64,000 bases of DNA from Candidatus Latescibacterota bacterium (GTDB taxonomy: Bacteria > Latescibacterota > MWCZ01). The stretch lies in the NCBI GenBank assembly GCA_022706085.1, contig JAKJDF010000007.1, forward strand, positions 10,474 to 74,473, given 5' to 3'. Position numbers and translations under genes: made by a program. Each line of letters opens with the position of its first letter. The first letter of the stretch is position 1. Positions 12,852 to 60,615 of the stretch are shown here, piece after piece. Below the pieces are notes generated by a model. The model had not been told where the DNA came from, did no database searches, and saw only the letters and a list, made by a program, of their open reading frames with translations.

Positions 12852-12887
12852 CGGGCGCCGGTGCCGACCGATATACACGAGGACTTT

Positions 12888-13862
12888 ATGCCGCTTCCGA
12901 GGAAATATACGCTGGCGAACAAGTTTTTCACTGCTTCCCGGTACCCGTTTCGGCGGCTTGCGGGGTATCCGACACTTGTCAATCTGGAAGTGACGAAGAA
13001 GTGCAACGCGCGGTGCGATTTCTGTGATTACTGGAAGACTGAGTCGGAGGAGCGGCTCGGGGACTACGCTCCGGTAATCGCCAAGTTGAAACCAACGGTG
13101 GTGATGCTTACCGGTGGCGAGCCGTTGCTCCGGCGGGACCTGCAGGCGGTGATCGCCGGGATAAAGAAGCAATCGCCGGCGGTGTACCTCGGCCTGATCA
13201 CCCACGCGGCGATGCTGACGCCGGAACGGGGGCTGGCGCTCTGGGACGCGGGGCTGGATCAGCTTTCGATCAGTCTCGATTTTCTCGATGAGCGGCACGA
13301 CAGGGCGCGGGGGATACCGGGGCTGGCGAAGAAGGTGAAGGAGACGATTCCGCTTCTTGTTCGGGCAGGAATTGATAACCTTGCGTTGAACACGGTAATC
13401 AAGTCGGACAATCTGGACCAGATCGTGGCGATGGTGCGTCAGTGCGAGGAGTGGGGGATCGGGATCGCGTTCAGCGCGTATGCCGACGTGAAGGTCGGCA
13501 ACAAGGAACACAACATCGGTGACGCGCAGATGAAGGAGCTGCAACGGGTTATCGGTGAGTTGCTGCGGCTCAAAAGAGAGGGTGCGCCGATACTGTCGTC
13601 GTCGTACTACCTTTCCCGCGTGCCGGAGTTTTTCGCCACGGGACGCATCGGCGGGTGCGTTGCCGGGGACCGGTTTGTCACCGTAACGCCGAGCGGCCAC
13701 GTGAAGAGGTGCAGTGAGTTTGACGCGGAGGTGCATTTTTCCGAGTGGACTCCGAAGTCCATCGGAGCGACGGATTGTGACGTCTGCTGGTTCAGTTGCC
13801 GGGGGGAATCTCAGGCGCCGGTGATATCGGCAGAGCGGCTGAAAGACACTCTTTTCAGATAG
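12888..13862 (+). CDS. radical SAM protein with C-terminal Cys cluster (SPASM/twitch-like)
   Basis: CNARCDFC (Cx3Cx2C) motif, LTGGEPLL glycine-rich SAM motif, C-terminal CSEF...CDVCWFSC cysteines; start set at the ATG (MPLPRKY) preceded by GAGGA. Confidence 0.8.
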   Translation: MPLPRKYTLANKFFTASRYPFRRLAGYPTLVNLEVTKKCNARCDFCDYWKTESEERLGDYAPVIAKLKPTVVMLTGGEPLLRRDLQAVIAGIKKQSPAVYLGLITHAAMLTPERGLALWDAGLDQLSISLDFLDERHDRARGIPGLAKKVKETIPLLVRAGIDNLALNTVIKSDNLDQIVAMVRQCEEWGIGIAFSAYADVKVGNKEHNIGDAQMKELQRVIGELLRLKREGAPILSSSYYLSRVPEFFATGRIGGCVAGDRFVTVTPSGHVKRCSEFDAEVHFSEWTPKSIGATDCDVCWFSCRGESQAPVISAERLKDTLFR

Positions 13863-13988
13863 AGCATCCGCGCCGAAGACTGACTGCGGTTTTTTGCGCC
13901 CTTGCCCGGCTGTTTGCCCGTCCCTCCCCTTTCTCCGTTTATTTCCTTACCGCAAACGGTTCGCCACCTCATATCGTGCGAGGATTCG

Positions 13989-15104
13989 ATGACCCAGTAC
14001 GAACGCGTACGCGCGGCCCTTCTCGGAGGACCTACAGACCGTCCTCCCGTAATTGGCGGCTGGGTGTGTCAGGAAGACTTTCTTGTCACCATGAGCCACG
14101 TGACGCGGGATGAGTTCTGGGAGAACCCTTATGCGCACGCCACGACCGCGTACAAAAACGCGGGCGCGGATGCGCTGGTGCAGTTTGTGCTGCCGAAACG
14201 GGAGACCGAGGCGACCCAGGGTGAGTACGGGCGGCCCACCAACTTCGGGAAACAGGAGGAACGGGCTGAAGACCGATTTCCCACCCTTGAATCGGTGATT
14301 GAGTGGGTTCGGAAGCAACCCACCATTGACGAGGTGCGGCGCACATTTGACGCGAAGAAGGCGTATGACGGGTACCTTTCGGTGGTTCACGAGCGGGAGG
14401 ACATTGCGCCGATGGTGTGGATTCCCGGGCATGTGTGCGGATGTCCGCCATTCATGTGGTATTCGTATCTGGGATATGAGAACTATTTTGCCGGGATGAT
14501 GGAAGCGCCCGAGGTGTTTGAGCGATTTTTCGCGATGGAAGGGGAGCAGCGGCGGCTGCAGAACGCGGAGGTGGCACGGGCGATACGGGAGAACGGGTTA
14601 CTGCCGCTCCTGTATTTCGGGGAGGACATCTGCTACAGCAGCGGCCCGATGTGCAGCCCCAGGCTTCTGCGGGAGATTTACTTCCCGCACCTTGCGCGCG
14701 CGATGGAACCGCTTGTGGAGGCGGGGATCATTTCGGTGTGGCACTCAGACGGCAACATCATGCCGATCATAGATGACCTTATCAGATGCGGAGTAGACGG
14801 TTTTCAGGGACTTGAAGAAGACCACGGAATGAGTCTTGAAACGTTAGCGGGGATGACGAACTGGAACGGTGTGCCACTGGTGCTCTGGGGAAGTGTCAGC
14901 GTGACCTCGACGCTGCCTCACGGAAGCGTCGAGGATGTAAGGAAGGATGTCAAACGGTGCATTGACATCGGAGCACGGCGTGGTGGCAGGTTGTTTCTGG
15001 CGCCTTCCAGTTCTGTCGGCCCTGAAGTTCCCACGGAGAACATCGTGGAGTTTTTCCGCTTCGGGAGGGAGTACGGTCTGGAGGCGTACGGAGGCGGAAG
15101 GTGA
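13989..15104 (+). CDS. uroporphyrinogen decarboxylase (URO-D) family protein
   Basis: About 370 aa with URO-D/MtaA-like fold features; start at MTQYERVRAALLG preceded by GAGGA. Paralogous to the ORFs at 20996..22129 and 35012..36142. Confidence 0.7.
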   Translation: MTQYERVRAALLGGPTDRPPVIGGWVCQEDFLVTMSHVTRDEFWENPYAHATTAYKNAGADALVQFVLPKRETEATQGEYGRPTNFGKQEERAEDRFPTLESVIEWVRKQPTIDEVRRTFDAKKAYDGYLSVVHEREDIAPMVWIPGHVCGCPPFMWYSYLGYENYFAGMMEAPEVFERFFAMEGEQRRLQNAEVARAIRENGLLPLLYFGEDICYSSGPMCSPRLLREIYFPHLARAMEPLVEAGIISVWHSDGNIMPIIDDLIRCGVDGFQGLEEDHGMSLETLAGMTNWNGVPLVLWGSVSVTSTLPHGSVEDVRKDVKRCIDIGARRGGRLFLAPSSSVGPEVPTENIVEFFRFGREYGLEAYGGGR

Positions 15105-15239: not shown

Positions 15240-16199
15240 TCAGCCCAACAGGAGGTACTTGCTCCACACGTATTTCGCCTTTGCCGCCAGACTGAGGAAA
15301 AGGTAGGTGTTGCACGCGTACTGGAACGATGGATCCATGTAGCAGTTGATCGTGCACCCCTGGCAGTACACGTGCCTGCCATCCTCGCGTTTGTACGCCT
15401 TCACGAGCGAACCTGCCCGCACCTTTTCCAACTGGCCGTTTATCGGTATGCGTTCTCTCTGCCGATGGAAGCACGGAAGGAGCAGGTGATCGTCCGGTGA
15501 GATGACGATGACGGCTTCCACCGCGTGACAGACGGGGTGCGCCCGCTGATTGCCGCCAGCCCGAATGAGACGGTGAAACGCCCGGTTGACGTAGACATTC
15601 CGCTCACGGGCGAACCGTTCAAGGTAGGCCAGTTCCCGTTCTCCGACACCTTTGTTCCCCGCCCACGGAAACTCCGGATTCACGATGAGCATGGTATTGT
15701 ACGCCTGCGCGATGGCGGCGAGCGGCGCGATCTGTTCGAACGTCTCCTCCGTTGCCGTAAAAAGGATGTCGGGATGCTCGCCGAGAGCACGCGCGACATC
15801 CAGGCTCTCCATCACCCGGTCGAAACACGGCAGGCCACGGATGCGGTCGTGAGTGTCCTTTTCCGCGGCGTCGAGCGAGAAGTGGAGCAGGTCTACCTGG
15901 CCGGCGAGATCCTTTGCACGGGCGGGGTAACGCAGGCAGTTGGTGGTGACGCTGGTTCGGAATCCGAGCACCTTCGCCAGGCGAAGCGCGCGGGGCAGGT
16001 CGTGATAGAGGAGGGGTTCGCCGCCGGTGAAATCCACGAATCGAGTGCCCAGTTTCCGGGCGGCGGTGAGGTTGGAGGTCATCTGGTCCCAGGAAGGGGT
16101 GGCGCGGTGGTCCCATTTTGCGGGGTCCCAGATGGTGCAGAATGAGCACCGGGCGTTGCAGCGGTAGGTCACGTAATAGTGGAGGAGGAGCGGTTTCAT
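15240..16199 (-). CDS. radical SAM protein with C-terminal Cys cluster (paralogue of 12888..13862)
   Basis: YVTYRCNARCSFC (Cx3Cx2C), FTGGEPLL, C-terminal CQGCTINC cysteines; 319 aa. Confidence 0.8.
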   Translation of the reverse strand: MKPLLLHYYVTYRCNARCSFCTIWDPAKWDHRATPSWDQMTSNLTAARKLGTRFVDFTGGEPLLYHDLPRALRLAKVLGFRTSVTTNCLRYPARAKDLAGQVDLLHFSLDAAEKDTHDRIRGLPCFDRVMESLDVARALGEHPDILFTATEETFEQIAPLAAIAQAYNTMLIVNPEFPWAGNKGVGERELAYLERFARERNVYVNRAFHRLIRAGGNQRAHPVCHAVEAVIVISPDDHLLLPCFHRQRERIPINGQLEKVRAGSLVKAYKREDGRHVYCQGCTINCYMDPSFQYACNTYLFLSLAAKAKYVWSKYLLLG

Positions 16200-29210: not shown

Positions 29211-30034
29211 ACGGGCGGCACAGAACCACACTGTGGCGGGAACATGTTGCGCTCTGGCGAGACGCCTGGCGGCGGGTGGTATCACACCGCCGGCAGGTCG
29301 TGCTGATCACTTTGTTGCTGTGGGTGCCGTGGCGGTTTGTGGTTCCTCTGGTTGATCGCCAGCTCGGTTTCGGGGCATTCGCCGGATTTCCGCTGGAATG
29401 GATTGCCGACGCACTATATGACCCGCTGTACGGGGCCACCATCCTTGCGGTGCTGGCAGAGATGTACCCGATTTCCGTTCGGAGCGCCCTCCTGAGGGGT
29501 TTCTGGCTCGTTCCCCGTCTGTGGCTGATCGAGATCAAAGTAGCGATCTGGGGGCTGGCCGTGCCCTACCTGATCCTCCATCTCGGGGCGGCGACCGTGT
29601 TGACTCTGTGGCCGAGCTACGGGGCCGCCCGCGCGCTCTTCGCGGTGACGATCGTCAGCATGGCATGGGTGCTGATTGTGGTGGTTCGGTACATGCTGGC
29701 AGCCGCGGTGATGGTTGCGGAAACGCAGGGGCACACCTGGAACGGGGAGCAGGCGCCTTCCACCGGGTGGGCGCTTTCGGCGGCGCGGCAGTTGATCCAG
29801 GGGAACGCAGGGCAAGCGGTTCTCGTGATGGCCGTGGGGCAGGGAGTTATCTCGCTCATCGTGTCGCTCCTTCCTTCGGGCGATACCGTGCCGGCGCAGG
29901 TTCTAAACGCGGCGGGCATGGTGGTTACGGCGCTCTGGTGGGCGCTTTTGTGGAGCTTTTGCCAGCTCTGTCTCAACAGGGCGCGCGGGGTGACCGCACA
30001 GGAGGCAACGCATGGACGTCAGAAAGCTCGTTGA
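29207..30034 (+). CDS. hypothetical integral membrane protein
   Basis: 275 aa, multiple hydrophobic helices (VVLITLLLWVPW, IWGLAVPYLILHLGAATVL, VTALWWALLWSF); ATGA overlap with aroK stop. Confidence 0.5.
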   Translation: MNGRHRTTLWREHVALWRDAWRRVVSHRRQVVLITLLLWVPWRFVVPLVDRQLGFGAFAGFPLEWIADALYDPLYGATILAVLAEMYPISVRSALLRGFWLVPRLWLIEIKVAIWGLAVPYLILHLGAATVLTLWPSYGAARALFAVTIVSMAWVLIVVVRYMLAAAVMVAETQGHTWNGEQAPSTGWALSAARQLIQGNAGQAVLVMAVGQGVISLIVSLLPSGDTVPAQVLNAAGMVVTALWWALLWSFCQLCLNRARGVTAQEATHGRQKAR

Positions 30035-30377
30035 TCATCTCGACCGCAGCCGCATGGTGCTGTGCCACAGTGGGACGATCTATTCGCAGGCGTTGTTCGG
30101 TGAGTTACGCCCGGATGAGGTGTGCCCGGGCGTGTTCGCCTATGCGCCGGGATGGGGCGTGCTGGACCCGGGGATGACCATGGAGGCGCACGAACATCCG
30201 GTCGCTGAGTTTTACGTGTTCGCGAGCGGAAAGGGACGGATGCGGCTGGGCGACACGTGGTTCGATGTCGAGCCGAATATGTCCGTGAATATCCCACCCG
30301 GGGTGGAACATGAGCTGGCGAATGATGCCGCGTCGCCTCTCCCACTCGTGTTTGTTTCGGTCGGCCTGAGGATCTGA
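30012..30377 (+). CDS. cupin domain protein
   Basis: 121 aa, metal-binding-like HEHPVAEFYVF...G...NIPPGVEHE two-motif cupin pattern. Confidence 0.6.
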   Translation: MDVRKLVDHLDRSRMVLCHSGTIYSQALFGELRPDEVCPGVFAYAPGWGVLDPGMTMEAHEHPVAEFYVFASGKGRMRLGDTWFDVEPNMSVNIPPGVEHELANDAASPLPLVFVSVGLRI

Positions 30378-30434
30378 CGCTCGCGCCGGCTCCTTCCGGA
30401 ATGAGTCTGCGTTCCTGATTCCGCCCTTCGTCTC

Positions 30435-30463
30435 TTGACAATTCAGCCTGCTTGGAGTATCCT
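30435..30463 (+). promoter_or_regulatory. sigma70-type promoter candidate for the DUF134 operon
   Basis: TTGACA (30435-30440), 17-bp spacer, TATCCT (30458-30463), about 40 bp upstream of the DUF134 start. Confidence 0.4.
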
Positions 30464-30465
30464 CA

Positions 30466-30485
30466 TTATGAACATATGCTCATAA
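30466..30485. promoter_or_regulatory. 20-bp palindromic operator candidate
   Basis: TTATGAACATATGCTCATAA, 18/20 positions self-complementary around CATATG, immediately downstream of the -10 element and upstream of the CAGGAG ribosome-binding site. Confidence 0.35.
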
Positions 30486-30503
30486 CTCAGGAGACCACAC
30501 TGT

Positions 30504-30932
30504 ATGCCAAGACCACGGAATCCCCGGCAGGTGCGATGTATGCCGTGCACGGATTACTTCAAACCGCGGGGCATCCCGCTGCGGGCGCTGGAAGAGGTGA
30601 CGCTGGCGGTGGAAGAACTGGAAGCGTTGCGGCTGGCTGATCTGGAAGGGATGGAGCAGATGGCGGGCGCGGAGCAGATGGAGGTATCGCGCCCCACGTT
30701 TGCACGGGTGCTCGCCTCCGCGCGGAAGAAGGTGGCGGATGCGCTGGTGAACGGGAAAGCGCTCCGGATTGAAGGCGGGGTGTTCCGGATGGCGGAGGGC
30801 GTCCCGTTCTGGGGACGGCACGGACACGGGTGGGGACGGGGCCGCGGCGGAGGATGCGGGCGGCGATTCCGGGGAGGACGTGAGTTTGGCCGGGGCGAGA
30901 CGCCCCCTGAACCGATGCCTGATTCCGAATAA
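30504..30932 (+). CDS. DUF134 (UPF0251) family predicted DNA-binding protein with Gly/Arg-rich C-terminal tail
   Basis: MPRPRNPRQVRCMPCTDYFKPRGIPLRALEEVTLAVEELEALRLADLEGMEQ...VSRPTFARVLASARKKVADALVNGKALRIEGG matches the DUF134 signature; tail GHGWGRGRGGGCGRRFRGGREFGRG. Confidence 0.8.
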   Translation: MPRPRNPRQVRCMPCTDYFKPRGIPLRALEEVTLAVEELEALRLADLEGMEQMAGAEQMEVSRPTFARVLASARKKVADALVNGKALRIEGGVFRMAEGVPFWGRHGHGWGRGRGGGCGRRFRGGREFGRGETPPEPMPDSE

Positions 30933-30945
30933 GAGGTAACAGCGA

Positions 30946-31302
30946 ATGTATACGATCAATTATGATCTTTGCACACGATGCTTTGCCTGCGTGAAAGCCT
31001 GCAAGAGACCGGGGGCACTGGAAATCCGAGAGGGAAAACCGAAGATCAATTTCGTGTTGTGCACCGAGTGCGGCCTGTGCGCGGAAGCGTGTCAGCACGG
31101 GGCGATAACGAAATGGGAGGCACGCGAGGAGGATGCCCAACCGCCGGAGGTCCCGGTTGCGAGTTCGCCGCCGCCTGTTTCCGCTCCCGCTGGGAATCCG
31201 CTTTCCCGGGGGTTTGCGCGATGCGGGGCATGGATCCGTTCGGCATGTGGGCGGCGGGGCGCACCTCGAGGTTACCGGAGGGGTGGACGCTGGAGGGTTT
31301 GA
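30946..31302 (+). CDS. 2x[4Fe-4S] ferredoxin
   Basis: Two Cx2Cx2Cx3C motifs (CTRCFACVKAC, CTECGLCAEAC) in the first 55 aa; low-complexity C-terminal extension. Confidence 0.75.
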   Translation: MYTINYDLCTRCFACVKACKRPGALEIREGKPKINFVLCTECGLCAEACQHGAITKWEAREEDAQPPEVPVASSPPPVSAPAGNPLSRGFARCGAWIRSACGRRGAPRGYRRGGRWRV

Positions 31303-31353
31303 TATCCGAGGAGTGTTCTGGTTGGAAACTATTCACAGAAAGGGAAGGACGCC

Positions 31354-31710
31354 ATGAAGATCGCGGTTCCAGTAGACACGAACGAGGGCCTCAGAAGTAT
31401 CGTTGCCGGCCATTTCGGGCATGCACCGCACTATGCGTTCGTCGATGGAAAGACGAAGCAATGCGCCGTTGTTCCAAACGCGAGTTCGCACAATGGCGGG
31501 GACAAGCTGCCCCCGGAATGGTTGTTTGATGAAGGCGTGAATGTCCTCATCTGCAACGGGCTGGGCGCGCGTGCCATCGGCCTGTGCACACAACTGGGAA
31601 TCGAGGTCTATATCACGGAGGAGCAAACAGTGGCGGAGTCCATTGGCGCGTTTGAAGCGGGAATGCTGCCCAGGGCGGGTTCCGATGATGCGTGCGCTCA
31701 CAAGCATTAG
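31354..31710 (+). CDS. NifX/NafY-like protein (dinitrogenase FeMo-cofactor biosynthesis domain family)
   Basis: MKIAVPVDTNEGLRSIVAGHFGHAPHYAFVD...VNVLICNGLGARAIGLCTQLGIEVY, typical of this domain; AAGGGAAGGA ribosome-binding site. Confidence 0.75.
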   Translation: MKIAVPVDTNEGLRSIVAGHFGHAPHYAFVDGKTKQCAVVPNASSHNGGDKLPPEWLFDEGVNVLICNGLGARAIGLCTQLGIEVYITEEQTVAESIGAFEAGMLPRAGSDDACAHKH

Positions 31711-31739
31711 ATTCCACAACACGACGAAAGGTGAGACCG

Positions 31740-32270
31740 ATGAAGATCGCAGTAAGCAGTTCCGGTCAGGAGCTCGACTCGCCGGTAGATCCGCGATTCG
31801 GACGATGCACTCATTTCGTAATCGTGGACTCCGACACTGACGACTACGACGCCATTGAAAATGCAGCAAGTGAAGCGGGAAGTGGCGCGGGAATCGCGGC
31901 GGCAAGCGCACTGGCGAAGGCGGGCGCGGAGGTTGTTTTGACGGGGAACCTCGGGCCCAATGCCGCGCGCACTCTCTCCACGCTCGGCATCAAGGCGTAC
32001 CGCGCAGAGGGCGACACGGTGGGAGAATCGGTGACCGCTTTCATTGATGGGCAACGGTTCGAAATCACGTCGCCGACTGTCACCGCGAAATCGGGCCTGA
32101 ATCCGCCTGCCGCGGTATTCCCCTCTCGTCCGTTGGGCGGCAGCACTGGCGGAGGAATGGGACGCGGTATGGGCGGCGGCGGAGGTATCGGCGGGGGTGG
32201 CGGCAGAGGCGCCGGTGGAGACCGTGGTGCTGGCGGCGGCAGAGGGGCCGGTGGCGGACGCGGAAGATGA
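31740..32270 (+). CDS. NifX/NafY-like protein with Gly/Arg-rich C-terminal tail
   Basis: MKIAVSSSGQELDSPVDPRFGRCTHFVIVD...AEVVLTGNLGPNAARTLSTLGIKAY, then tail GGGMGRGMGGGGGIGGGGGRGAGGDRGAGGGRGAGGGRGR; AAAGGTGAG ribosome-binding site. Confidence 0.7.
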   Translation: MKIAVSSSGQELDSPVDPRFGRCTHFVIVDSDTDDYDAIENAASEAGSGAGIAAASALAKAGAEVVLTGNLGPNAARTLSTLGIKAYRAEGDTVGESVTAFIDGQRFEITSPTVTAKSGLNPPAAVFPSRPLGGSTGGGMGRGMGGGGGIGGGGGRGAGGDRGAGGGRGAGGGRGR

Positions 32271-33121
32271 TAGTAAGCGTTGCAAGCGGGAAAGGCGGAA
32301 CCGGCAAGACCACGGTTGCGGTTGCGCTGGCGCAGGTAGCTCCGAACAGCGCCTACGTGGATTGCGACACCGAAGCGCCTAACGGGCACCTGTTTTTGCG
32401 CCCGAATATTTCACACCGCAAACCGGTCAATCGCAAAGTAGCCTCGATCAATGTGAACATGTGCACGTGGTGCGGTGAATGCATGGAAAAATGCGCCTAC
32501 CACGCGATCGTGATCGCACACGCGACGAAGAAGGCCGTCGTATTCGAGGACCTGTGCATGGGATGCGGCGTCTGTTCACTCGTGTGCCCGGCTCGCGCGA
32601 TTACAGAGGAAGACCGGCACGCGGGAATCGTTTCGAACGGCCACAGTGGCAGGATTCGCACGCGGGAGGGCCGAATGGCGGTTGAGGCTCCTCACGCGCA
32701 CCCTGTGCTGAATGAGACGTTGAAGGAGCTTCCCGATGCGCCTCACACGATTCTCGACGCGGAGCCGGGTGTCACGGGGCGTGTAGTAACAACGGTGAGG
32801 GCAAGCGATGTGTGTGTTCTAGTCACTGAGCCAACACCGTTCGGGCTGCACGATCTGGAGCTGGCCGTGACGATGACGCAGCATGTCGGGGTTCCGGTCG
32901 GCGTCATCATCAATCGTTCAACGATAGGCGACAACGCCGTGCGCGACTTTTGTCGGGTTCGGACCATACCCGTTCTGCTGGAGATTCCGTTTGACCGACG
33001 CATTGCAGCGGGGTACGCGGTGGGAAAGACGCTTGTTGAGATTCTGCCGGACATGAAAAGCCAATTTGCGGAGGTTCTCAGGCATATCGAGCGGATCGTC
33101 ACTGAGAGGGGGCGATCATGA
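32267..33121 (+). CDS. MinD/ParA-type P-loop ATPase with embedded 4Fe-4S ferredoxin domain
   Basis: Deviant Walker A SGKGGTGKTT; ferredoxin insert CTWCGECMEKC...CMGCGVCSLVCP; ATGA overlap with upstream gene. Confidence 0.8.
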   Translation: MIVSVASGKGGTGKTTVAVALAQVAPNSAYVDCDTEAPNGHLFLRPNISHRKPVNRKVASINVNMCTWCGECMEKCAYHAIVIAHATKKAVVFEDLCMGCGVCSLVCPARAITEEDRHAGIVSNGHSGRIRTREGRMAVEAPHAHPVLNETLKELPDAPHTILDAEPGVTGRVVTTVRASDVCVLVTEPTPFGLHDLELAVTMTQHVGVPVGVIINRSTIGDNAVRDFCRVRTIPVLLEIPFDRRIAAGYAVGKTLVEILPDMKSQFAEVLRHIERIVTERGRS

Positions 33122-34035
33122 CTCCGCAGATTACGGTGGTAAGCGGGAAAGGCGGTACCGGAAAGACAACGCTTACTGCTCTGTGGGGCAGCATGGCAGA
33201 CAGGCCGGTGCTTGTAGACGCGGATGTGGACGCGTCGAACCTTCCGCTGGCGTACCCCCACGAGACGCGGGAGCAGCATCCGTTCGTTGGACGGGATGTG
33301 GCCGTAGTGAACGAGCCGTTGTGCAAGAATTGCGGTGTGTGCGCGAGGGCGTGCAGGTTTGATGCGTTTGTGCAGGTTGAAGGCCAGTTCCGGGTGGACC
33401 CGCTTGCGTGCGAAGGATGCACGCTGTGCACGCTGGTGTGCCCGCTCGATGCGATCACCATGAAACCGCACGTCTCCGGAACGTGGTCTGTGAGCGAAAC
33501 CGGGTTCGGACCTCTCGTCCATGCTCAACTGGGAATTGCGGAGGGGAATTCCGGCAAACTGGTGACGCAGGTGCGCCGGGCGGGGGAGAAGCTGGCAGAG
33601 GAGCGGGTGGCGGCAGTGATTCTGGTTGACGGCCCTCCGGGGATCGGCTGCCAGACAACGGCGGCGATGGCGGGAGCCTCTCTGGTGGTGCTGGTAACTG
33701 AACCGTCGGCGTCAGGGCGGCACGACATGGAGCGGTTGCTTTCGGTAACGAATCGGCTGGGTGTTCCGGCGCTTGTTGTTCTCAACAAGGTTGACCTTGC
33801 ACCCGCTGAAGAGGCGTTGATTCGGAACGCGGTATCGCGCATGGGCGCGGAGTATGCGGAGTATATAGGGTCCGTCCCGTTCATTCAGGAGGTCCCCGGG
33901 CTGCTTGCTTCGGGAACCCTGCTCAGCGAGTGCCCGCGCCCGCTGAGGGAAGCGGCGGAAGGACTGTGGAAGGTAATTCTGGAACGCGCACTGGTGGCGG
34001 AGCGCGTCCAGCAGGGAGAACCTGCGCACGGATAA
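33118..34035 (+). CDS. MinD/ParA-type P-loop ATPase with embedded 4Fe-4S ferredoxin domain (paralogue)
   Basis: SGKGGTGKTT; CKNCGVCARAC...CEGCTLCTLVCP; ATGA overlap with upstream paralogue. Confidence 0.8.
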   Translation: MTPQITVVSGKGGTGKTTLTALWGSMADRPVLVDADVDASNLPLAYPHETREQHPFVGRDVAVVNEPLCKNCGVCARACRFDAFVQVEGQFRVDPLACEGCTLCTLVCPLDAITMKPHVSGTWSVSETGFGPLVHAQLGIAEGNSGKLVTQVRRAGEKLAEERVAAVILVDGPPGIGCQTTAAMAGASLVVLVTEPSASGRHDMERLLSVTNRLGVPALVVLNKVDLAPAEEALIRNAVSRMGAEYAEYIGSVPFIQEVPGLLASGTLLSECPRPLREAAEGLWKVILERALVAERVQQGEPAHG

Positions 34036-34061
34036 CGCACCGGAAAGGATGGGTAAGGAAA

Positions 34062-34247
34062 ATGCCTCTGGGTGACGGAAAGGGGCCCCCGGAAGGGACT
34101 GGCCCGATGACGGGGAGGAAGCGCCTCGCGGCAAGCTGCCCATCGAAGAAACCTGAAAAAGCAAGCGGGTGGTCTCTTCTAGGACTTATCGTTGTGGCGT
34201 TACTCGCGCTTGGGGTGTGGTTTGTCTCGCACAACACAGACGATTGA
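34062..34247 (+). CDS. small membrane-anchored protein with DUF5320-like N-terminus (61 aa), tentative
   Basis: AAGGAAA ribosome-binding site then ATG; MPLGDGKGPPEGTGPMTGRK shares the GxGPMTGR motif with the downstream DUF5320-like protein; C-terminal TM helix LLGLIVVALLALGVWFV. Confidence 0.4.
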   Translation: MPLGDGKGPPEGTGPMTGRKRLAASCPSKKPEKASGWSLLGLIVVALLALGVWFVSHNTDD

Positions 34248-34593
34248 GATTGCACCACGAGAAGGAGATCCACATGCCAGGAGTACGGGGAATGAGGCCG
34301 ATGGGAAGGCGGTGTACTGCGCTTGGTCCCGGTCGGGGCGGATACGCGGTGCGGCCGACCTCCTTTGCGGGGGGATATCGCCTCATTCGTTGCGGCCGAG
34401 GATGCCGTGGGCGGGGGTTCCGCGAGCGGTGGTCCCATCGAGCCTTTTTTGCGCCCGGATTTGCGTGGAGACAGCCCTTCGCAGCGCCTGTTGGCGCGCC
34501 GTGGAGGGTTTAGTTCATAATCGCGCCCAGGGTGATGGTCAGCATCATAAGGGCGCATGTATATCAACACACTTGCGATAAGGAGGCAGAACA

Positions 34594-34920
34594 ATGCCAG
34601 CAGGAGATGGCACTGGTCCCATGGGAATGGGACCGATGACGGGTCGGCGCGCGGGATTTTGCGCCGGATTCGGCGTTCCGGGATACATGAACCCGGGAGC
34701 GGGTTTCTGGTGCGGCGGTGGCCGCGGGCGGGGATTCCGCAATCGGTACTGGGCAACAGGAATACCCGGATGGGCGTGGTGGCAGGGCGTTCCGGGAACC
34801 GTCCCCGCGCCGATGACCGAAGAGGCCGAAGCGGAAGCACTGCGTCAGCAGGCGGCGGCTCTCCAGCGGTCGCTGGATGCGATCAACCAGAGGCTTGCGA
34901 GCCTGACCTCAGAGAAATAG
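34594..34920 (+). CDS. DUF5320-like small protein (108 aa)
   Basis: MPAGDGTGPMGMGPMTGRRAGFCAGFG..., Gly/Arg/Trp-rich middle, C-terminal coiled coil (EAEAEALRQQAAALQRSLDAINQRLASL); GGAGG ribosome-binding site. Confidence 0.55.
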   Translation: MPAGDGTGPMGMGPMTGRRAGFCAGFGVPGYMNPGAGFWCGGGRGRGFRNRYWATGIPGWAWWQGVPGTVPAPMTEEAEAEALRQQAAALQRSLDAINQRLASLTSEK

Positions 34921-35011
34921 GCTTCCGGAAAAGTCCGCCTGTGCGGAGCCGGGATGCTCCCAAGGGGCAGGACAGCGGGGGAGTCCGCAAGGACTCTCCC
35001 GCTGTGTGCGC

Positions 35012-36142
35012 TTACGCCGGCCAGTGATCCCAGAATCTTTTCCTGCCACGTTCGCTGACGTAACCGGCGAGAGCTCTTCGGGGGCATCCCTCATCGAGGA
35101 GACGCTTCACTTCTTTCGCCGCGCGAATGAACGCGTGGATTTTCGGGATGTTCTCCCCATTGCATGAATTTGCTTCCAGAATCGTGAATACTCTGGAGGC
35201 CCCGTCCGCAGCCGACTGAAAGACGAAATCCTCCACGTCCTGCGCGTCCAGCACCGTTAGATGGATTCCCCCGAGGCGCCAGCCAAAGGGTACGCGGCAC
35301 TCGTCCGCGATGATACGGGGGTTCAGGTGGTGGGAGATGGACGGGTCGTAGTAAGACAGCCCGATCTGTTCCAGGAAGGGCAGGTGAGCAGGTTTCAGGT
35401 CTTCCACGTGCGCATGAACATCACCCGTGGTGCGGCGGCGGAAGAGATCGCTCCAGAACGGGACGACGAATTCATTCCAGAGCCGTGGGGGAATCATTGC
35501 GGCGATGTCGTCGCACAGGCTTGCGCCGCTTTCGTTGAACACCGTTGCGCCGGTAACGCCGAGGCGGAACTGCTCGAACGCGAGGATACTGTCGTTGATC
35601 CGGCCCAGGAGCTCCTTTGTTTTCGCCGGTTCCTCCATCACGTCGACGAAAAAGGCATCGCCCCGCAATTCGTAGGCTGTGGTGCAGGGACCTTCCACTC
35701 CGAAGGAGAAGCCGACCGATTCGCCGGGAAACGCCCGCATCATCTGTTCGCGGAAGTCCAGATAGAACGGGGCCATCCCTCTGCTGGCGAAATCGACCGG
35801 CCGCGCGAGAGCTTCCATCGCTTCCGCCATCGAGTGCGCGAAGCAGTGCTCGACCGCGACCTCGCCTCCTTCGGGGAAAAACAATCTCGCGCCCAGGGCG
35901 CTGGCGTGGCCGTAACTTACTGGCGGCGTGGCGGGAGAGGGCAAGGAAACGTCGTGCGGGTCGAACAGCTGCCTTTGCTTTTCCCGTCCGACGCGATACG
36001 CCTCGATACAGGCTTCTGGTTTGAGAAAGAAATCGCGGAACGGTACCCCGGACAGCGCAAGGCAGGAGAGATAGCTACCTGACACGCTCCATGAGAACTC
36101 CTTCGGATTGCGCGCGGATGTGTAGTCGGGTTTGCGGTACAT
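35012..36142 (-). CDS. uroporphyrinogen decarboxylase (URO-D) family protein
   Basis: Start MYRKPDYTSARNPKEF preceded by AGGAGG; about 376 aa; third URO-D-like paralogue in the window. Confidence 0.7.
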   Translation of the reverse strand: MYRKPDYTSARNPKEFSWSVSGSYLSCLALSGVPFRDFFLKPEACIEAYRVGREKQRQLFDPHDVSLPSPATPPVSYGHASALGARLFFPEGGEVAVEHCFAHSMAEAMEALARPVDFASRGMAPFYLDFREQMMRAFPGESVGFSFGVEGPCTTAYELRGDAFFVDVMEEPAKTKELLGRINDSILAFEQFRLGVTGATVFNESGASLCDDIAAMIPPRLWNEFVVPFWSDLFRRRTTGDVHAHVEDLKPAHLPFLEQIGLSYYDPSISHHLNPRIIADECRVPFGWRLGGIHLTVLDAQDVEDFVFQSAADGASRVFTILEANSCNGENIPKIHAFIRAAKEVKRLLDEGCPRRALAGYVSERGRKRFWDHWPA

Positions 36143-36389
36143 GATGGCCTCCTGATACCAATGAATCGGGAAAAGTGCCCACGGGAGCAAGCTGGCGCCT
36201 GAACGGAGTGTCACGAGGGAACTTGGTGCCGGGGCCGCGTCGCGCTATTGTACTTGACGAATCCGGGAAACTGCTATCCCGGTGTCAGTGACTGTGTTCC
36301 CACAGGTTGCGTCCTCCTGAATGCCCTCATGCAGGGCGGCGAGCGTCTTCCTCAGGGTGTTTTTCGACTCCACGGAAAGGAATCCGAGC

Positions 36390-39875: not shown

Positions 39876-42326
39876 ATGACACAGGGATCCACTGCCCGGA
39901 CAACGTTACCGATTTCGGGCATGAGTTGCGCCGCGTGCGCGGCGCGCATTGAGCGGAAGCTGCGAGCGTTGGAAGGCGTTTCGGACGCGCAGGTGAATCT
40001 GGCGGCGCACACGGCATTGATTACCCATGACGCCGCCACGGCACCGGTACCGCGAATCGTTGACGCCGTCCGCGAGGCGGGATATGACGTGCCGTCGGAA
40101 ACGTTGCACATCCCGGTGGAGGGGATGAGCTGTGCGTCGTGCGTGTTCCGAGTGGAGCGCGCGGTGAAGGGCGTGGAAGGCGTGCTGGACGCCCAGGTGA
40201 ACCTTGCGACAGGGGAGGCAACCGTTCGTACGGTTTTGGCGGACGATTCCGTTACGCGCGCGATTGCCGCGGCGGTGGAGAAGGCCGGGTACGGCGTCAG
40301 GTCTGTGGAGCGTTCGGATCGGTCGACGGTAGATCCGGTGGCGCGTTCGGAAGAGGAATTCAGGAGTCTGAAGCGACGGTTTGCGATTGCCGCGGTGTTT
40401 GCGATCCCGGTGTTTCTGATCAGCATGGGCCTGGTGCCGGGTGTGGCGCGCCTGCCCTTCCAGACCACCGCAATTCTTCTGCTGGGGCTTACGCTCCCCG
40501 TTCAGTTCTGGGCGGGATGGCAGTTCCACCGGGGCGCGTGGCAGCAGTTGCGCCATGCGTCCGCCGACATGAACACGCTGATTTCGGTGGGAACAAACGC
40601 CGCGTTCCTCTTCAGTCTGGTTTTGACGTTCCATCCGGCCGCCTTCCGGAGTACCGGGGTACACCACGCGGTCTATTACGAAACGTCGGCGGTAATCATC
40701 ACGCTGGTTCTGTTCGGGCGGATGCTGGAGGCGCGGGCGAAAGCCAGGACCACGCAGGCGATGAGCGCCCTTCTCGCGCTTCGGCCGGTAGCCGCCCATG
40801 TGGAGCGGGACGGGCAGATTGCGGACGTTGACCCGGCGGATGTGGTGGCGGGCGATGTTCTTGTGGTGCGACCGGGCGAGCGGCTGCCGGTGGACGGAGT
40901 GGTACTGGATGGTTATTCGTCGGTGGATGAGAGCCTGCTGACGGGCGAGAGTCTGCCGGTGGACAAGAAACAGGATGACACGGTGACGGGTGGGACGCTG
41001 AACGTGTCGGGGAGTTTCCGTTACCGCGCGACGCGGGTGGGGAATGAGACGACGCTGGCCCAGATTATCCGGCTGGTGGAGCGCGCTCAGGGTTCCAAGG
41101 CACCCGTGCAGCGGCTGGTTGACTGGATTTCCGCGGTGTTCGTTCCGACGGTGATCGCGATTTCGGCGGTGACGTTTTTCGTGTGGTGGGCTTTCGGGCC
41201 GGACCCGGCGCTCCATTTTGCGGTGCTGAACGCCGTCGCGGTGCTGATCGTCACGTGTCCGTGCGCGCTTGGCCTTGCCACCCCGACGGCGATCATGGTG
41301 GGGACGGGGCGAGGGGCGGAGATGGGCATCTTCATCAGAAGTGGTGAAACGCTGGAACGAGTTGGCAGGCTGACGACGGTTGTGTTCGACAAGACGGGAA
41401 CGCTGACGCGAGGGGAACCTGTTGTGACGGGGGTACATGCAGTTGGTACCACGCCGGCGGAGGAGGTACTCGTTCTTGCGGCGTCGGCTGAGGCCCGGTC
41501 TGAGCACCCTCTGGGGGCTGCCATCGTCAGGAACGCAGCGGAGCGGTCGCTTCCGCTTCTTTCGTGCGACGAGTTCTCGGCTGAACCGGGCCACGGACTG
41601 CGGGCAACGATTGGCAACCGGGTGGTTCTGATTGGCAATGCCGCCCTGATGCATGAGCAGGGCGTGCGCCTGGATGCGGGGAAAAGCGTTGCGGAAGAGA
41701 TTCAGGCAAAGGGAGCCACCGCGGTGTTCGTGGCGCTCGATGGCCTGCTGGAGGCGGTGTTCGAGATCGCGGATACGCCGAAACCGCATGCCGCCGAGGT
41801 GATCGCGGCGCTGAAACGCGACGGTTTGAGGGTAATCATCCTGACAGGGGATTCGCGACGGACGGCCGAAGCAATTGCATCACAACTCGGCGCGGATGAG
41901 GTGATTGCGGAGGTGAGGCCGGGCGCGAAAGCGGATTATGTGGCGGCTCTGCAGAGGAACGGGGCGGTTGTCGCGATGGTGGGTGACGGCGTGAACGATG
42001 CGCCGGCTCTGGCCCAGGCGGATATCGGCATTGCGCTCGGGACGGGAAGCGACGCGGCGATGGAGACCGCCGGAATCACCCTTATCGGGGGCGACCTACG
42101 CAGCGTGCGGAAAGCGATTGCGCTTTCCCGCGCCACGTTGCGGACGATACGGCAGAACCTCTTCTGGGCATTCATCTACAACGTGGCGGGCATTCCGATC
42201 GCGGCGGGCGTTCTCTACCCGGTGAACGGCATGTTGCTCGACCCGATGCTGGCAAGCGCCGCGATGGCGATGAGCAGCGTCAGCGTGGTGACGAACAGCC
42301 TGCGGTTGCGGCGCTGGAACGCGTGA
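39876..42326 (+). CDS. copA: copper-translocating P1B-type ATPase
   Basis: Two N-terminal HMA domains ([24 protein letters not shown]), CPC motif VTCPCALG, phosphorylation motif FDKTGTLT, hinge GDGVNDAP. Confidence 0.9.
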
Positions 42327-58683: not shown

Positions 58684-60141
58684 CTATTTCAACACGACGT
58701 TCTCCGCGAATTCCCCTATGTACACGTTCGCTTTCTCAAGCGTCTTCATCCGGACGCCGTTGCGGTACAGGCCTTCGATTGTCACGTTTTCCACCCGGTG
58801 GTGCGCGTCGTATCCGCGAAATGACGATGGCGGCATCCGGTCCGAACGCACGTGGATGTTCCGATACGTGATGTCGGAAATGCGACCCCGCTCCTTCCTG
58901 CCTTCGCTGTATTCCGGGTGTTCGGTGATGCTGCAGCCCATCAACGTAGGCAACCACGGGGAGTGCGGATCCACCGGGAAGGTCTCCGCGTCGTCTCTCT
59001 GGATGCGCGGCCGCTGGTACACCGGGTCCATTTCCACCCGAATATTCTCGAACAGCACGTCGTGAACGTGGCCGTAATCCACATTGCCGATGTTCAGGGC
59101 GATATCCAGACTCCGGATCACGTCCATGTTACGGAAAGTCAGGTTGCGCATATGGTCCGCGCAACACTCCGCGCCGATTTCGAGGCAGTGGTCCCAATCG
59201 CACCAGACGACGCAGTTCTCCACCAGTATGTCCTCGCACACCTGCTGGTAGCCGAGGTGCCCTTTGAAGCAGATGGAATCATCGAAGGTGCGGACGAAGC
59301 AATCGGTGACGTGGCATCGGCGGCAGTTGTGAAAATCGATGCCGTCCGTGTTGAAGCGCCAGCTCCCGATGATCTTCAGATTCCTGATTTCGACATCGTC
59401 GCACCCCCACAGGCCGACGTTGTAGACCAGTGAATCACGAATCGTGAACCCGTCCAGAACCACGTCCTGACAGCGGATCAGCTGGATGGTGTGCTCTCGT
59501 TTCGCGTTACGGACGTCGAACATGCCATCGCCGAGTTTTTCCATCGGGAACAGGATGGTCTCCACGTTTTTGCTGTTATCCAGCACTCCCCGGCCGAGGA
59601 TGCGGATGCCCCGGCAGTCGGTGGCGTGGATGCAACCGTAAACGACAGCGCCTTCGTCAATGAACACGGTCTGGCCGTCTTTGAGCTCAAGGATTCCGAC
59701 GTCGTGGCAGCCCGGACCGAAGTAGATGGTCGCGGGGCCGTGCGGATCGACCGCGTAGTTCGCGGGCGGATCCGCGAACAGGTGCAGGTTATGGTGGTAG
59801 CCATCCATCTCGAGCGAGTAACCGCCCGGCGACGGGAGAATGAAGGTGATGACGCCGTTCTCGACCTGCGGGTGCACGTTCTTCGACAGCGGCCGCACCA
59901 CGACGTCCTTGAAGGCGCGCCCAGGCCGCACCTGAACGGTTACCGGCTCGGTCATCTCCAACGAGGTGAAGTACGCGATCTCGGATTGCTCGATCTGCCG
60001 CTGATGCCCCGGCCATCGGCGATTGAACGGCACGGCGGATACGCGGCAGAGCTGCACCGGGGCTTTCTGGCCGTCAAGCAGGCAGAGGATGTCGTCGGCG
60101 ACCGGTATTTCCCCGGGTACGCGATATGTGCGAGCGGGCAT
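58684..60141 (-). CDS. glycoside hydrolase family 28 (polygalacturonase-like, right-handed beta-helix)
   Basis: GH28 motifs NTDGIDF, FDDSICFKG and RN...; start MPARTYRVPGE after AGGAG. Confidence 0.8.
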   Translation of the reverse strand: MPARTYRVPGEIPVADDILCLLDGQKAPVQLCRVSAVPFNRRWPGHQRQIEQSEIAYFTSLEMTEPVTVQVRPGRAFKDVVVRPLSKNVHPQVENGVITFILPSPGGYSLEMDGYHHNLHLFADPPANYAVDPHGPATIYFGPGCHDVGILELKDGQTVFIDEGAVVYGCIHATDCRGIRILGRGVLDNSKNVETILFPMEKLGDGMFDVRNAKREHTIQLIRCQDVVLDGFTIRDSLVYNVGLWGCDDVEIRNLKIIGSWRFNTDGIDFHNCRRCHVTDCFVRTFDDSICFKGHLGYQQVCEDILVENCVVWCDWDHCLEIGAECCADHMRNLTFRNMDVIRSLDIALNIGNVDYGHVHDVLFENIRVEMDPVYQRPRIQRDDAETFPVDPHSPWLPTLMGCSITEHPEYSEGRKERGRISDITYRNIHVRSDRMPPSSFRGYDAHHRVENVTIEGLYRNGVRMKTLEKANVYIGEFAENVVLK

Positions 60142-60192
60142 TCGGGGGCTCCTTTGAGTGGAGGCAATCCTGGTCTTCAAACCAAAAAAAAG

Positions 60193-60222
60193 CTCACGCG
60201 AAGACACGAAGACGCGAAGGGG
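60193..60222 (+). repeat. CGCGAAGA-repeat element, copy D
   Basis: CTCACGCGAAGACACGAAGACGCGAAGGGG, about 50-80 bp upstream of the GH28 start on the opposite strand. Confidence 0.6.
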
Positions 60223-60264
60223 TGTGGCGTTTTTCGGGCCTACCCCGGCGGATCGTCTTTCTCG

Positions 60265-60615
60265 CTACGGGACGTGCAGCGCGTGCGAAGCGACGAGTAT
60301 CACGAACGCGGAAACGCCCAGAACGCTGATGAGCAATTCCCGTTTGAACTTCGTGTACTCTCCGGCCTTCGCCGTCACGTAATGTACGAGAGCCTTCCAG
60401 TTCATGATGACATGTGCGACTGCGGCAACGAGAAACAGTAACGAGGCGGAGTTGTGAAGCGTCATGAACAGGTGGCTCCACCGGGTGTTGCCCTCATGCG
60501 AAGCGAGGTGGAGCGCGATGCCGGAGGGGACCAGCCACAGGCCGGCACAGAACAGGGCCACGGATGCAAGGGGGCGCACGCTGATGGCCGGTTTATCAGA
60601 CGATGCATCGTTCAT
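60265..60615 (-). CDS. hypothetical membrane protein
   Basis: About 116 aa from MNDASSDKP (GGAAAGG ribosome-binding site); 3-4 hydrophobic helices. Confidence 0.45.
   Translation of the reverse strand: MNDASSDKPAISVRPLASVALFCAGLWLVPSGIALHLASHEGNTRWSHLFMTLHNSASLLFLVAAVAHVIMNWKALVHYVTAKAGEYTKFKRELLISVLGVSAFVILVASHALHVP

Follow-up and report, generated by a model that had tools for sequence, protein, structure and literature searches.

A compact operon of a Candidatus Latescibacteria metagenome-assembled genome, occupying positions 30435-34920 of a 64-kb stretch of DNA that was analysed in full (hereafter the window), is the subject of the present study. Its eight co-directional genes, designated here g1 to g8, all lie on the + strand (Table 1), as a preliminary description of this DNA had proposed, and Pfam profile searches recovered the families anticipated there: DUF134, Nitro_FeMo-Co (the NifX fold), CbiA/MinD combined with Fer4, and DUF5320. 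Gaps between the genes range from -4 to 80 nucleotides (nt). Of three ATGA stop-start overlaps described previously, two are found in the operon, where the start of g5 overlaps g4 (32267) and that of g6 overlaps g5 (33118); the third (29207) joins two unrelated upstream genes. The locus is also present in anaerobic-digester assemblies, and its proteins have been deposited under the name Candidatus Latescibacteria bacterium ADurb.Bin168.

Table 1. Features of the operon region, with positions numbered from the first nucleotide of the 64-kb window
Feature	Position	Strand	Remarks
Sigma-70-like promoter	30435-30463	+	-35 TTGACA 30435-30440, 17-nt spacer, -10 TATCCT 30458-30463; 10/12 matches
20-bp palindrome TTATGAACATATGCTCATAA	30466-30485	unstranded	Predicted DUF134 operator; overlaps transcription start region
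g1, DUF134 helix-turn-helix (HTH) protein	30504-30932	+	142 amino acids (aa); PF02001 E 1e-22
g2, 2x[4Fe-4S] ferredoxin	30946-31302	+	118 aa; Fer4 families
g3, NifX-fold (Nitro_FeMo-Co) protein, TM1816/PH0822 subtype	31354-31710	+	118 aa; PF02579 E 8e-17
g4, NifX-fold protein, candidate Orp8 orthologue	31740-32270	+	176 aa; PF02579 E 6e-23
g5, MinD/Mrp-class ATPase with inserted ferredoxin, copy 1	32267-33121	+	284 aa; CbiA + Fer4
g6, MinD-ferredoxin ATPase paralogue, copy 2	33118-34035	+	305 aa; CbiA/MinD + Fer4
g7, DUF5320 N-terminal motif and C-terminal transmembrane helix	34062-34247	+	61 aa
g7b, possible ninth gene, status uncertain	34274-34513	+	79 aa; Arg/Gly-rich
g8, full-length DUF5320 protein	34594-34920	+	108 aa; PF17253 E 7e-29
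GC-rich hairpin, 15-bp stem, 4-nt loop	34972-35005	unstranded	Arms 93% complementary

The sequence TTGACA-17-TATCCT is the only promoter-like site between 30200 and 35200. Three nt past its -10 box begins a palindrome of 10+10 nt, with arms TTATGAACAT and ATGCTCATAA that are 90% complementary; it occurs once in the 64 kb, against 0.01 copies expected. Terminator-like sites inside the operon show no excess (4 versus 3.6 in shuffled sequences). The hairpin at the distal end sits between the operon and a convergent gene (35012-36214) and is likely a bidirectional transcription stop without a T-tract; a consensus terminator scan did not call it because it has no T run. Rfam searches (E<=1) of positions 30000-35300 returned no riboswitch or other RNA family, and in eight related loci they returned tRNAs only.

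This set of genes is very probably an orange protein (ORP)-type cluster. No member of the neighbourhood had been thought to have been studied experimentally; that view does not hold, as the neighbourhood is that of the Desulfovibrio ORP complex, which has been studied, its physiological function nonetheless undefined. In Desulfovibrio vulgaris Hildenborough, the cluster is arranged as orp5-orp4-orp3 / orpR / orp7-orp8-orp9 (PMC6345978; PMC8359166). Orp3 and Orp4 are MinD-like proteins with two [4Fe-4S] motifs each, and Orp8, the orange protein, carries a [S2MoS2CuS2MoS2] cluster. A small [2Fe-2S] protein is the homologue of Orp5, while Orp9, or MrpORP, combines Mrp/NBP35 and Di-Nase domains and can pass Fe-S clusters on to Orp proteins in vitro (PMC6345978). 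Orp3/Orp4, Orp8, and MrpORP form a complex, and the two divergent, sigma-54-dependent orp operons have OrpR as their activator. This protein contains a redox-sensitive [4Fe-4S] cluster in its PAS domain and turns the operons off when the redox potential rises; inactivation of orpR leads to morphological defects, and the authors still call the function of ORP unclear (PMC6345978, PMC8359166, PMC3897727). Searches of the accessible literature for COG1149/COG1433 and for Orp3/Orp4 found no further functional studies.

The MinD-ferredoxin ATPases that define such clusters form a very large family, with more than 8000 database clusters at E<=1e-10, and the neighbourhoods of four diverse homologues contain the same core genes. 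A scan of one genome per species with the ATPase alignment yielded 80 loci from more than 20 anaerobic phyla of Bacteria and Archaea, which together with the four earlier loci gave 84 non-redundant loci, 39 of them with full flanks. These were surveyed with locally built hidden Markov models (HMMs) for genes within 6 kb on the same strand. The ATPases occur as a tandem pair in 80 of the 84 loci, and NifX-fold genes, usually two, accompany them in 88% of all loci and 97% of the full-flank set. The remaining components are less constant: DUF5320 (45% of all loci, 54% of full-flank loci), an Mrp-type ATPase (48%, 46%), NifU_N (21%, 28%), a metallo-beta-lactamase-fold gene (25%, 28%), Zn_ribbon_8 (19%, 26%), DUF134 (12%, 18%), FUR (12%, 8%), and a free ferredoxin (12%, 13%). 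Content and order are thus conserved in related genomes, as the preliminary description had expected. The P-loop neighbour of the ATPase pair was scored in 10 related loci and passes the MrpORP equivalog cutoff in 7 of them, and those loci are therefore bona fide orp clusters; a check anchored on DUF5320 instead found ORP-type clusters in 3 of 4 loci. One related locus, L212, has a PAS-sigma54 activator between divergent operons, which is the Desulfovibrio layout, with a DUF5320 gene directly before the ATPase pair; it also encodes a fused Mrp-type (CbiA/ParA) and Nitro_FeMo-Co protein that is, by its domain architecture, a candidate MrpORP. An unannotated 217-aa open reading frame (ORF) of another locus, L007, was at first treated as a separate family and proved to be a NifX-fold subfamily, with which it was merged.

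At the centre of the operon, g5 and g6 each carry a ferredoxin domain inserted at residues ~55-115. Their family has a deviant Walker A motif, GKGGTGKT, and in an alignment of 155 members, on which all statements of residue conservation are based, K9, K14, D32, D34, D164, E188, D196, and the eight ferredoxin cysteines are invariant (155/155). Of the 155, 153 have a further cysteine in switch II (PGTSCP), 7 residues C-terminal to the catalytic Asp. The same spacing separates Asp125 of NifH from its cluster ligand Cys132. In NifH/BchL-type reductases, an inter-subunit [4Fe-4S] cluster is ligated by two Cys of each subunit, one of which is in switch II; it is for this one that a counterpart was assigned. 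The analogy with NifH, CooC, HypB, and Mrp suggests that the switch-II Cys may provide a metal or cluster site at the dimer interface that is coupled to nucleotide state. The AlphaFold2 model of g5 (pLDDT, the predicted local distance difference test score, 95.5) has archaeal MinD, ApbC, ATPase-type HypB, FleN/FlhG, Cfd1, and NifH as its nearest solved folds, headed by 1HYQ, 1ION, and 1G3Q; sequence and structure searches of the PDB revealed no solved structure with a MinD-ferredoxin fusion. Neither protein fits an established equivalog: scores against the minD models are 59 and 52 bits for TIGR01969 (cutoff 201.75) and 40 for TIGR01968 (cutoff 212.9), those of g5 and g6 against ApbC and MrpORP are far under the NCBIfam cutoffs, and the NCBIfam equivalogs for NifH, CooC, and HypB are not approached. 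In a comparison with L212, g5 shares 43.5% identity with copy 1 of that locus and 30.6% with copy 2, whereas the values for g6 are 43.3% with copy 2 and 30.8% with copy 1. Given this reciprocal pairing, at ~43% versus ~30%, the two ATPases are therefore ancient paralogues that have been kept as a pair, and such ancient paired paralogy argues for a putative obligate g5/g6 heterodimer.

The NifX-fold proteins tie the operon most directly to ORP. Both g3 (61.7 bits) and g4 (81.3 bits) lie well above the PF02579 cutoff of 26.3, and the best NCBIfam match of each is the Di-Nase domain of MrpORP. The best PDB matches of g3 are 1T3V/1O13 (TM1816; E 1.5e-11) and 2YX6 (PH0822); that of g4 is 2WFB, the D. 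gigas orange protein (~45% identity; E 8e-22, residues 2-106), to which no other protein of the window is closer. In addition, g4 is 42% identical to the NifX-fold gene that adjoins the MrpORP-type gene in L212, and it ends in a Gly/Met/Arg-rich tail. Tails of this GMGRG type occur in 25 of 159 NifX-fold proteins of the related loci (g4 included) and in 31 of 56 DUF5320 proteins, compared with 26 of 2230 background ORFs. In the free ferredoxin g2, aa 1-57 make up the ferredoxin domain and the rest is a Pro/Arg/Gly-rich tail, and L006, a relative at 62% identity, encodes a ferredoxin with an RG-rich (Arg/Gly-rich) tail at the equivalent position. Arg/Gly-rich segments, RGG-like and partly Gly-Met-Arg, are found on four or five products of the operon (g1, g2, g4, g7b, and g8), and the same low-complexity tails appear on NifX-fold and DUF5320 proteins of other phyla. 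The RG motifs of Methanosarcina mazei DUF134 and DUF5320 proteins have been flagged in a paper on archaeal G-quadruplexes (PMC7565180). Possible roles for the tails include binding of anionic clusters, co-assembly, and nucleic-acid binding.

The operon closes with the DUF5320-type small proteins. The last of them, g8, matches PF17253 over residues 1-104 (101.3 bits, cutoff 27), is 55% identical to the DUF5320 protein of L212, and has 2190 homologues. It has the GxGPMTGR motif at its N-terminus, a single conserved Cys, an RG-rich central part, and a coiled coil at its C-terminus. In the family as a whole, a highly conserved N-terminus of the form MPxGDGTGPxGxGPMTGRxxGxC is combined with a Gly/Arg(/Met)-rich central part, a YATGLPGW motif, and a coiled coil at the C-terminal end; in many loci there is an additional short paralogue with no coiled coil. 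The GxGPMTGR N-terminus was originally described as common to g7 and g8, and it is present in both: the N-terminal motif of g7, MPLGDGKGPPEGTGPMTGR, has the form MPxGDGxGPxxGxGPMTGR shared with DUF5320. Nevertheless, g7 falls below the Pfam DUF5320 cutoff, at 17.8 bits (cutoff 27; E 0.008, first 20 residues), and matches a local DUF5320 HMM over residues 1-21 with E 1e-7. Everything after its N-terminal motif is replaced by a membrane anchor. It is annotated as a 61-aa gene in GCA_035401365.1, and a hydrophobic-tailed variant also occurs in L070. As for g7b, it follows g7 after a 26-nt gap, has a strong ribosome-binding site, GAAGGAG, 7 nt upstream and an atypical codon-position composition (GC2>GC3), and has no match in Pfam or NCBIfam; the idea that it is a third paralogue of the DUF5320 type was rejected for want of proof (DUF5320 HMM E 0.13). 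Known ParA/MinD partner proteins likewise have a conserved N-terminal peptide joined to a coiled coil or membrane anchor, and we propose by analogy that the DUF5320-type proteins may be adaptors or activators of the ATPases.

Control of the operon appears to lie with its first gene. Over residues 3-95, g1 matches PF02001 with 81 bits (cutoff 27), and it shows weak similarity to sigma-70 region 4 and to the DeoR HTH. The palindrome is found again 5' of DUF134 genes of distant lineages, namely Deltaproteobacteria (TTATGAGCATATGCTTATAA), Caldisericota (ATGAGCATATGCTCAT), Dehalococcoidales (TTATGAGCATATGCTCATAA), Methanocellales (GTTATGAATATATATTCATAAC), and Thermotoga (TTATGAGCGTATGCTTATAA). As an unbiased test, metagenome contigs were searched for the exact 20-mer TTATGARCATATGYTCATAA, which at least 120 contigs match. 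Among the matches listed, a DUF134 gene starts at the 20-mer in 95 of 120 contigs, typically 13-35 nt 3' of the site; nine more of the 120 listed contigs carry DUF134, DUF5320, NifX-fold, or MinD-ferredoxin genes elsewhere on the contig, and in two of those nine a DUF5320 gene lies <=65 nt from the 20-mer. The position of the site relative to the promoter follows two geometries. In the first, seen in 48 of the 90 unique operator-DUF134 loci among the matches listed, a -35 box precedes the operator by 30-32 nt and the operator covers the transcription start; the window, with its -35 box 31 nt before the operator, has this modal arrangement. In the second, the -35 box abuts the operator, which fills the spacer and supplies the -10 box. 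Both geometries place the operator over the promoter, and repression by occlusion is therefore predicted. On these sequence comparisons the palindrome would be a near-universal DUF134 operator, new relative to the searchable papers, through which DUF134 is likely to regulate its own expression. The claim that the operon is a self-contained unit, with its own promoter, palindromic operator, and in-operon regulator, is thus borne out, and it is much strengthened because the operator is conserved beside DUF134 genes across phyla.

The protein side of this interaction offers further hints. The recognition-helix motif of g1, S-R-P-T-F, is the same in 49 of 101 DUF134 genes from contigs with the canonical operator. 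Scoring was possible for 90 of these 101, and 73 of the 90 have the more general form S-R-[PAQ]-T-F. Two loci with a variant operator, TGTGCATATGCACA, have S-R-G-T-[IV] instead, and this apparent covariation of the HTH motif with the operator is suggestive in a small sample. At their C-terminus, most DUF134 proteins have a Cys4 ribbon (CxxC...CPxC), for which a role as a metal or Fe-S sensor would be plausible. Among the matches listed, operator-DUF134 pairs precede ORP-type genes and also an ArsP_1 permease (16 loci), an S-adenosylmethionine (SAM) methyltransferase (7), DUF364/DUF4213 "heavy-metal chelation" genes (6), Pyr_redox-rhodanese (3), peroxiredoxin (3), ARMT1-like (3), and RND efflux genes (2); FeoAB lies 3' of DUF134 in L210. 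Searches of the PDB with DUF134 and DUF5320 sequences gave no meaningful match and no solved structure.

Several further observations concern DUF134 and its sites. The operator and DUF134 head ArsP_1 permease operons in L107, L111, L131, L133, L136, L141, L173, L198, L209, and others, in which the permease is often followed by a Methyltransf_31 SAM methyltransferase, a pairing reminiscent of ArsP/ArsM modules for metalloid methylation and efflux. In Syntrophaceticus schinkii (L087), a variant palindrome, ATGGGCATATGCCCA, occurs at 6124, 8115, and 11046, before Mrp, NifX-fold, and FUR genes, and no DUF134 gene was found in the region examined. Three copies of such a variant lie in a divergent promoter region at 317-440 of L079; together with those of L087, they suggest multi-operator regulons and operator sub-types. 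A Smithella orp cluster (L213, 5765-5965) encodes a 66-aa protein with a GMGRG tail and a Cys4 ribbon (CICPQCG...CPQC) very similar to the one at the C-terminus of some DUF134 proteins, for example the protein encoded at 7201-7752 of L016.

The surroundings of the operon were assessed by Pfam scans of ~45 other ORFs across the window. No nif, suf, isc, hydrogenase, or carbon monoxide dehydrogenase (CODH) genes were found in the 64 kb, in agreement with the earlier statement that the locus lacks a nitrogenase context, and on this annotation the locus was judged not to be part of a larger nif, hydrogenase, or CODH locus; a Sigma54_activat gene was likewise not found in the window. A cupin gene lies immediately 5' of the operon, and 3' of it follow a URO-D-like gene, a giant FG-GAP/PQQ protein, a P1B ATPase with two HMA domains, and GrpE-DnaK-DnaJ. 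The window also encodes GMP synthase, a TetR regulator, ABC and efflux systems, two radical-SAM and, in all, two URO-D-like proteins, LutB/LutA-like proteins, glycoside hydrolases, sulfatases, and shikimate kinase.

The P1B-type ATPase, whose two HMA domains are N-terminal, is encoded 5 kb 3' of the operon (39876-42326, +). Its orthologue in L006 (8884-11370) directly follows the MinD-ferredoxin pair, and an HMA ATPase likewise adjoins the pair in L027 (Methanosarcinales); this proximity may represent a functional copper link, given the Mo-Cu cluster of ORP, or mere synteny. One URO-D-like gene (13902-15104, +) is flanked by radical-SAM genes at 12861-13862 (+) and 15240-16199 (-), and the second, a weak match, is the gene on the - strand that converges on the operon; a URO-D/MtaA-like fold suggests methyltransfer or decarboxylation chemistry. 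At 60001-62200 the G+C content is 0.54, compared with ~0.62 elsewhere, and this segment, in which an N6/N4 DNA methylase (61276-62166, -) and a PD-(D/E)XK nuclease-like ORF (60737-61408, -) are located, is probably a horizontally acquired restriction-modification module. The cumulative GC skew climbs almost monotonically over positions 1-58000 and most genes are on the + strand, which is consistent with a window on one replichore and with a leading-strand gene bias.

The explanation that we favour on balance is that these genes form a DUF134-repressed, ORP-type operon of a strictly anaerobic bacterium of the Latescibacteria that encodes an ATP- and electron-driven module for the handling of metal-sulfur clusters; the function suggested for it previously, an ATP-driven carrier or insertion module for metalloclusters, is plausible. 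The mechanistic core of the explanation is put forward more tentatively, as falling a little short of what we would call probable. In outline, a DUF134 dimer would bind the 20-bp palindrome over the transcription start and repress its own gene and those downstream until a metal, sulfur, or redox signal lifts the repression. The g5 and g6 proteins, whose signature lysine and Walker and switch residues are intact, would form an ATP-dependent heterodimer in which each subunit holds two [4Fe-4S] clusters on its ferredoxin insert and the switch-II Cys lies at the dimer interface. Nucleotide-driven closure of this dimer could load, remodel, or hand over a labile metal-sulfur cluster, either Fe-S or a thiometallate of the type Mo/W(-Cu)-S, with low-potential electrons supplied via the ferredoxin domains of the ATPases and the free ferredoxin g2. 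The cluster would be carried by g3 and g4, the latter as the putative orange-protein orthologue, and the DUF5320-type proteins would dock on the ATPases and possibly stimulate them, much as short N-terminal partner peptides do for other ParA/MinD ATPases.

A number of observations weigh against this explanation. In g5 the switch-II Cys is replaced by Gly (Cys171 to Gly), the only other exception in the family being its relative in L006, and g6 keeps this residue and is without Cys33 and Cys229; any metal site at the interface would therefore be incomplete in this lineage, and the Latescibacteria ATPase pair is, to judge from its residues, a derived, asymmetric version. Alignment with 13 homologues shows that the C-terminal tail of g1 is Arg/Gly/His-rich and lacks the Cys4 ribbon of most of them. 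The palindrome resembles the 12-2-12 operators of the ArsR/SmtB type, and another regulator could therefore conceivably bind it. Orthology to the ORP cluster was established through L212 and PDB 2WFB, standing in for the DVU2103/DVU2104 sequences. The best window protein reaches 47.8 bits against the MrpORP model NF041136 (cutoff 450) and no Mrp-type gene is present in the 64 kb, so that the one ORP component with demonstrated Fe-S transfer is missing from it. Moreover, the Mo-Cu cluster bound by ORP may be non-physiological, and the searchable literature contains no characterised DUF134 or DUF5320 protein and no experiment on this locus. Finally, the Desulfovibrio phenotype is morphological and points to cell division, not to metalloenzyme deficiency (PMC6345978, PMC8359166, PMC3897727).

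A more sweeping form of the cluster-handling explanation, which we regard as somewhat unlikely when taken as a whole, would make DUF134 a pan-prokaryotic autoregulated repressor whose Cys4 ribbon senses metal, sulfide, or Fe-S and which acts on a nearly invariant 20-bp operator, TTATGAGCATATGCTCATAA, in both Bacteria and Archaea, with a regulon of ORP, ArsP, methyltransferase, and DUF364 genes. The MinD-ferredoxin pair would then represent a new class of ATP- and electron-driven machine for processing metal-sulfur clusters, DUF5320 an adaptor akin to ParA partners, and the NifX-fold proteins with Gly-Met-Arg tails the cluster carriers.

An explanation that we consider improbable here is that the operon encodes a spatial or cell-division system, in which the MinD-like pair positions the septum or a cargo with DUF5320 proteins as adaptors, Fe-S clusters as redox sensors, and NifX-fold proteins in an accessory role. 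This is the hypothesis of the Desulfovibrio ORP authors, who themselves term the role putative. Morphology defects upon inactivation of orpR and a polar localization of MrpORP are reported in the literature, as is a C-terminal helix of Orp3/Orp4 that is putatively membrane-targeting. The nearest folds, archaeal MinD, FleN/FlhG, and ParA/Soj, fit it, as do the membrane anchor of g7 and the DUF5320 architecture of N-terminal peptide, disordered RG-rich region, and coiled coil, which is like that of known ParA/MinD partners. However, Pfam scans of the window found no MinC, MinE, FtsZ, or ParB genes near the operon, and the conserved neighbourhood consists mostly of metal and sulfur genes: NifX-fold, Mrp/ApbC-type, NifU_N, FUR, CooT, FeoAB, rhodanese, MOSC, and cysteine-desulfurase-like. 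The DUF134 operator, furthermore, heads permease, methyltransferase, and "heavy-metal chelation" genes, and the co-regulated set (ArsP-type permeases, methyltransferases, DUF364, persulfide-reductase-like proteins, and FeoAB) points to metal and sulfur handling over cell division.

The operon could also serve the homeostasis of thiophilic metals or metalloids (thiometallate, Cu, As), with toxic metal-sulfides of sulfidic habitats, such as thiomolybdate-Cu, sequestered and processed on NifX-fold and Gly-Met-Arg-rich proteins and DUF134 sensing the metal or sulfide load, and we give this possibility an equally low rating. The [S2MoS2CuS2MoS2] cluster bound by the orange protein speaks for it, although that cluster may be an artefact of isolation, and so does the HMA P1B ATPase near this operon and next to the pair in L006 and L027, although such an ATPase is adjacent in only 3 of the 84 loci. 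The genes downstream of DUF134 operators, from ArsP_1, methyltransferase, and DUF364/DUF4213 to Pyr_redox-rhodanese, peroxiredoxin, and RND genes, also agree with it, as do a CDF-NifX fusion in L007 and the Gly-Met-Arg repeats and Met-rich DUF5320 N-terminus, which are reminiscent of Cu(I)-binding Met motifs. Two ATPases with two [4Fe-4S] clusters each are, however, left unexplained by homeostasis, expression in Desulfovibrio answers to redox potential and not to a tested metal, and the Rfam searches described above gave no molybdenum cofactor or metal riboswitch. That the operon is a dedicated NifH/NifX-, CooC-, or HypB-like system serving the maturation of a nitrogenase-like, hydrogenase, or CODH enzyme whose genes lie elsewhere is very improbable: the NifX-fold domains, HypB, NifH, and BchL among the structural neighbours, the NifH-like spacing of the switch-II Cys, and CooT in 5 of 84 loci speak for it, but no genes for such enzymes were found in the 30 kb that flank the operon on each side, the great majority of the 84 related loci lack them too, the cluster is spread over phyla with very different metalloenzyme repertoires, and the corresponding NCBIfam equivalogs are not approached.

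The favoured explanation, a DUF134-repressed module for metal-sulfur cluster handling, bears on a question that dates from the isolation of the orange protein, namely the function of the ORP cluster, which is among the most widespread anaerobe-specific neighbourhoods. The window shows that the ORP core needs neither OrpR, MrpORP, nor sigma-54, and the survey identifies DUF5320 as a frequent component of ORP-type systems. In addition, an operator predicted across both domains for the DUF134 family makes its signal, and the genes that are co-regulated with ORP, testable.

The gene neighbourhood is already known, and the locus hence constitutes no new category; it differs from its closest known counterpart, the Desulfovibrio ORP complex, in its regulator, its promoter, MrpORP, DUF5320, and the degenerate ATPase interface. 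Both systems have two paralogous MinD-type ATPases of ~31 kDa with two [4Fe-4S] motifs each and NifX-fold small proteins that include the orange protein or its orthologue, and both are restricted to anaerobes and placed under dedicated local control through a palindromic site. Whereas the Desulfovibrio genes form two divergent sigma-54 operons, those of the window form one sigma-70-type operon, and the PAS-[4Fe-4S] activator OrpR is replaced by a DUF134 HTH protein that would be a repressor by its geometry. MrpORP and the Cys-rich small Fe-S protein are missing here, and a free ferredoxin and two or three DUF5320-type proteins are added. The switch-II Cys has been lost from one of the two ATPases, and several products bear RG-rich tails.

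Individual components likewise recall characterized families. The SIMIBI-class metal ATPases (Mrp/NBP35/ApbC, HypB, CooC, and NifH/BchL) have the same deviant Walker A motif with its signature lysine, the same switch I and switch II aspartates, and the MinD/ApbC/HypB-like fold common to g5, and the placement of the switch-II Cys 7 residues past the catalytic Asp is that of NifH. In contrast, none of the solved structures has a counterpart of the inserted 2x[4Fe-4S] ferredoxin domain, and the CXXC motif with which Mrp-type carriers bind a bridging [4Fe-4S] cluster is absent from g5 and g6, in whose sequences and alignment no CXXC occurs outside the ferredoxin insert. The NifX, NafY, and NifB C-terminal carriers (PF02579) belong to the same small alpha/beta fold family as g3 and g4, and a role in carrying labile metal-sulfur clusters is proposed for both. 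Unlike those nitrogenase carriers, g3 and g4 fall in the MTH1175/TM1816/ORP branch, which is found in non-diazotrophs, and nifHDK, nifEN, and nifB are present neither in the window nor in the related loci surveyed. Lastly, DUF134 recalls the autoregulated repressors of the ArsR/SmtB, Fur, and Rex types, whose palindromic operators overlap their own promoters: it is a small HTH protein encoded first in its operon, with a 20-bp palindrome over the -10/+1 region or the spacer and a regulon of metal and sulfur handling genes. DUF134 is, however, an unrelated, sigma-70 region 4-like family, most members of which carry a C-terminal Cys4 ribbon.

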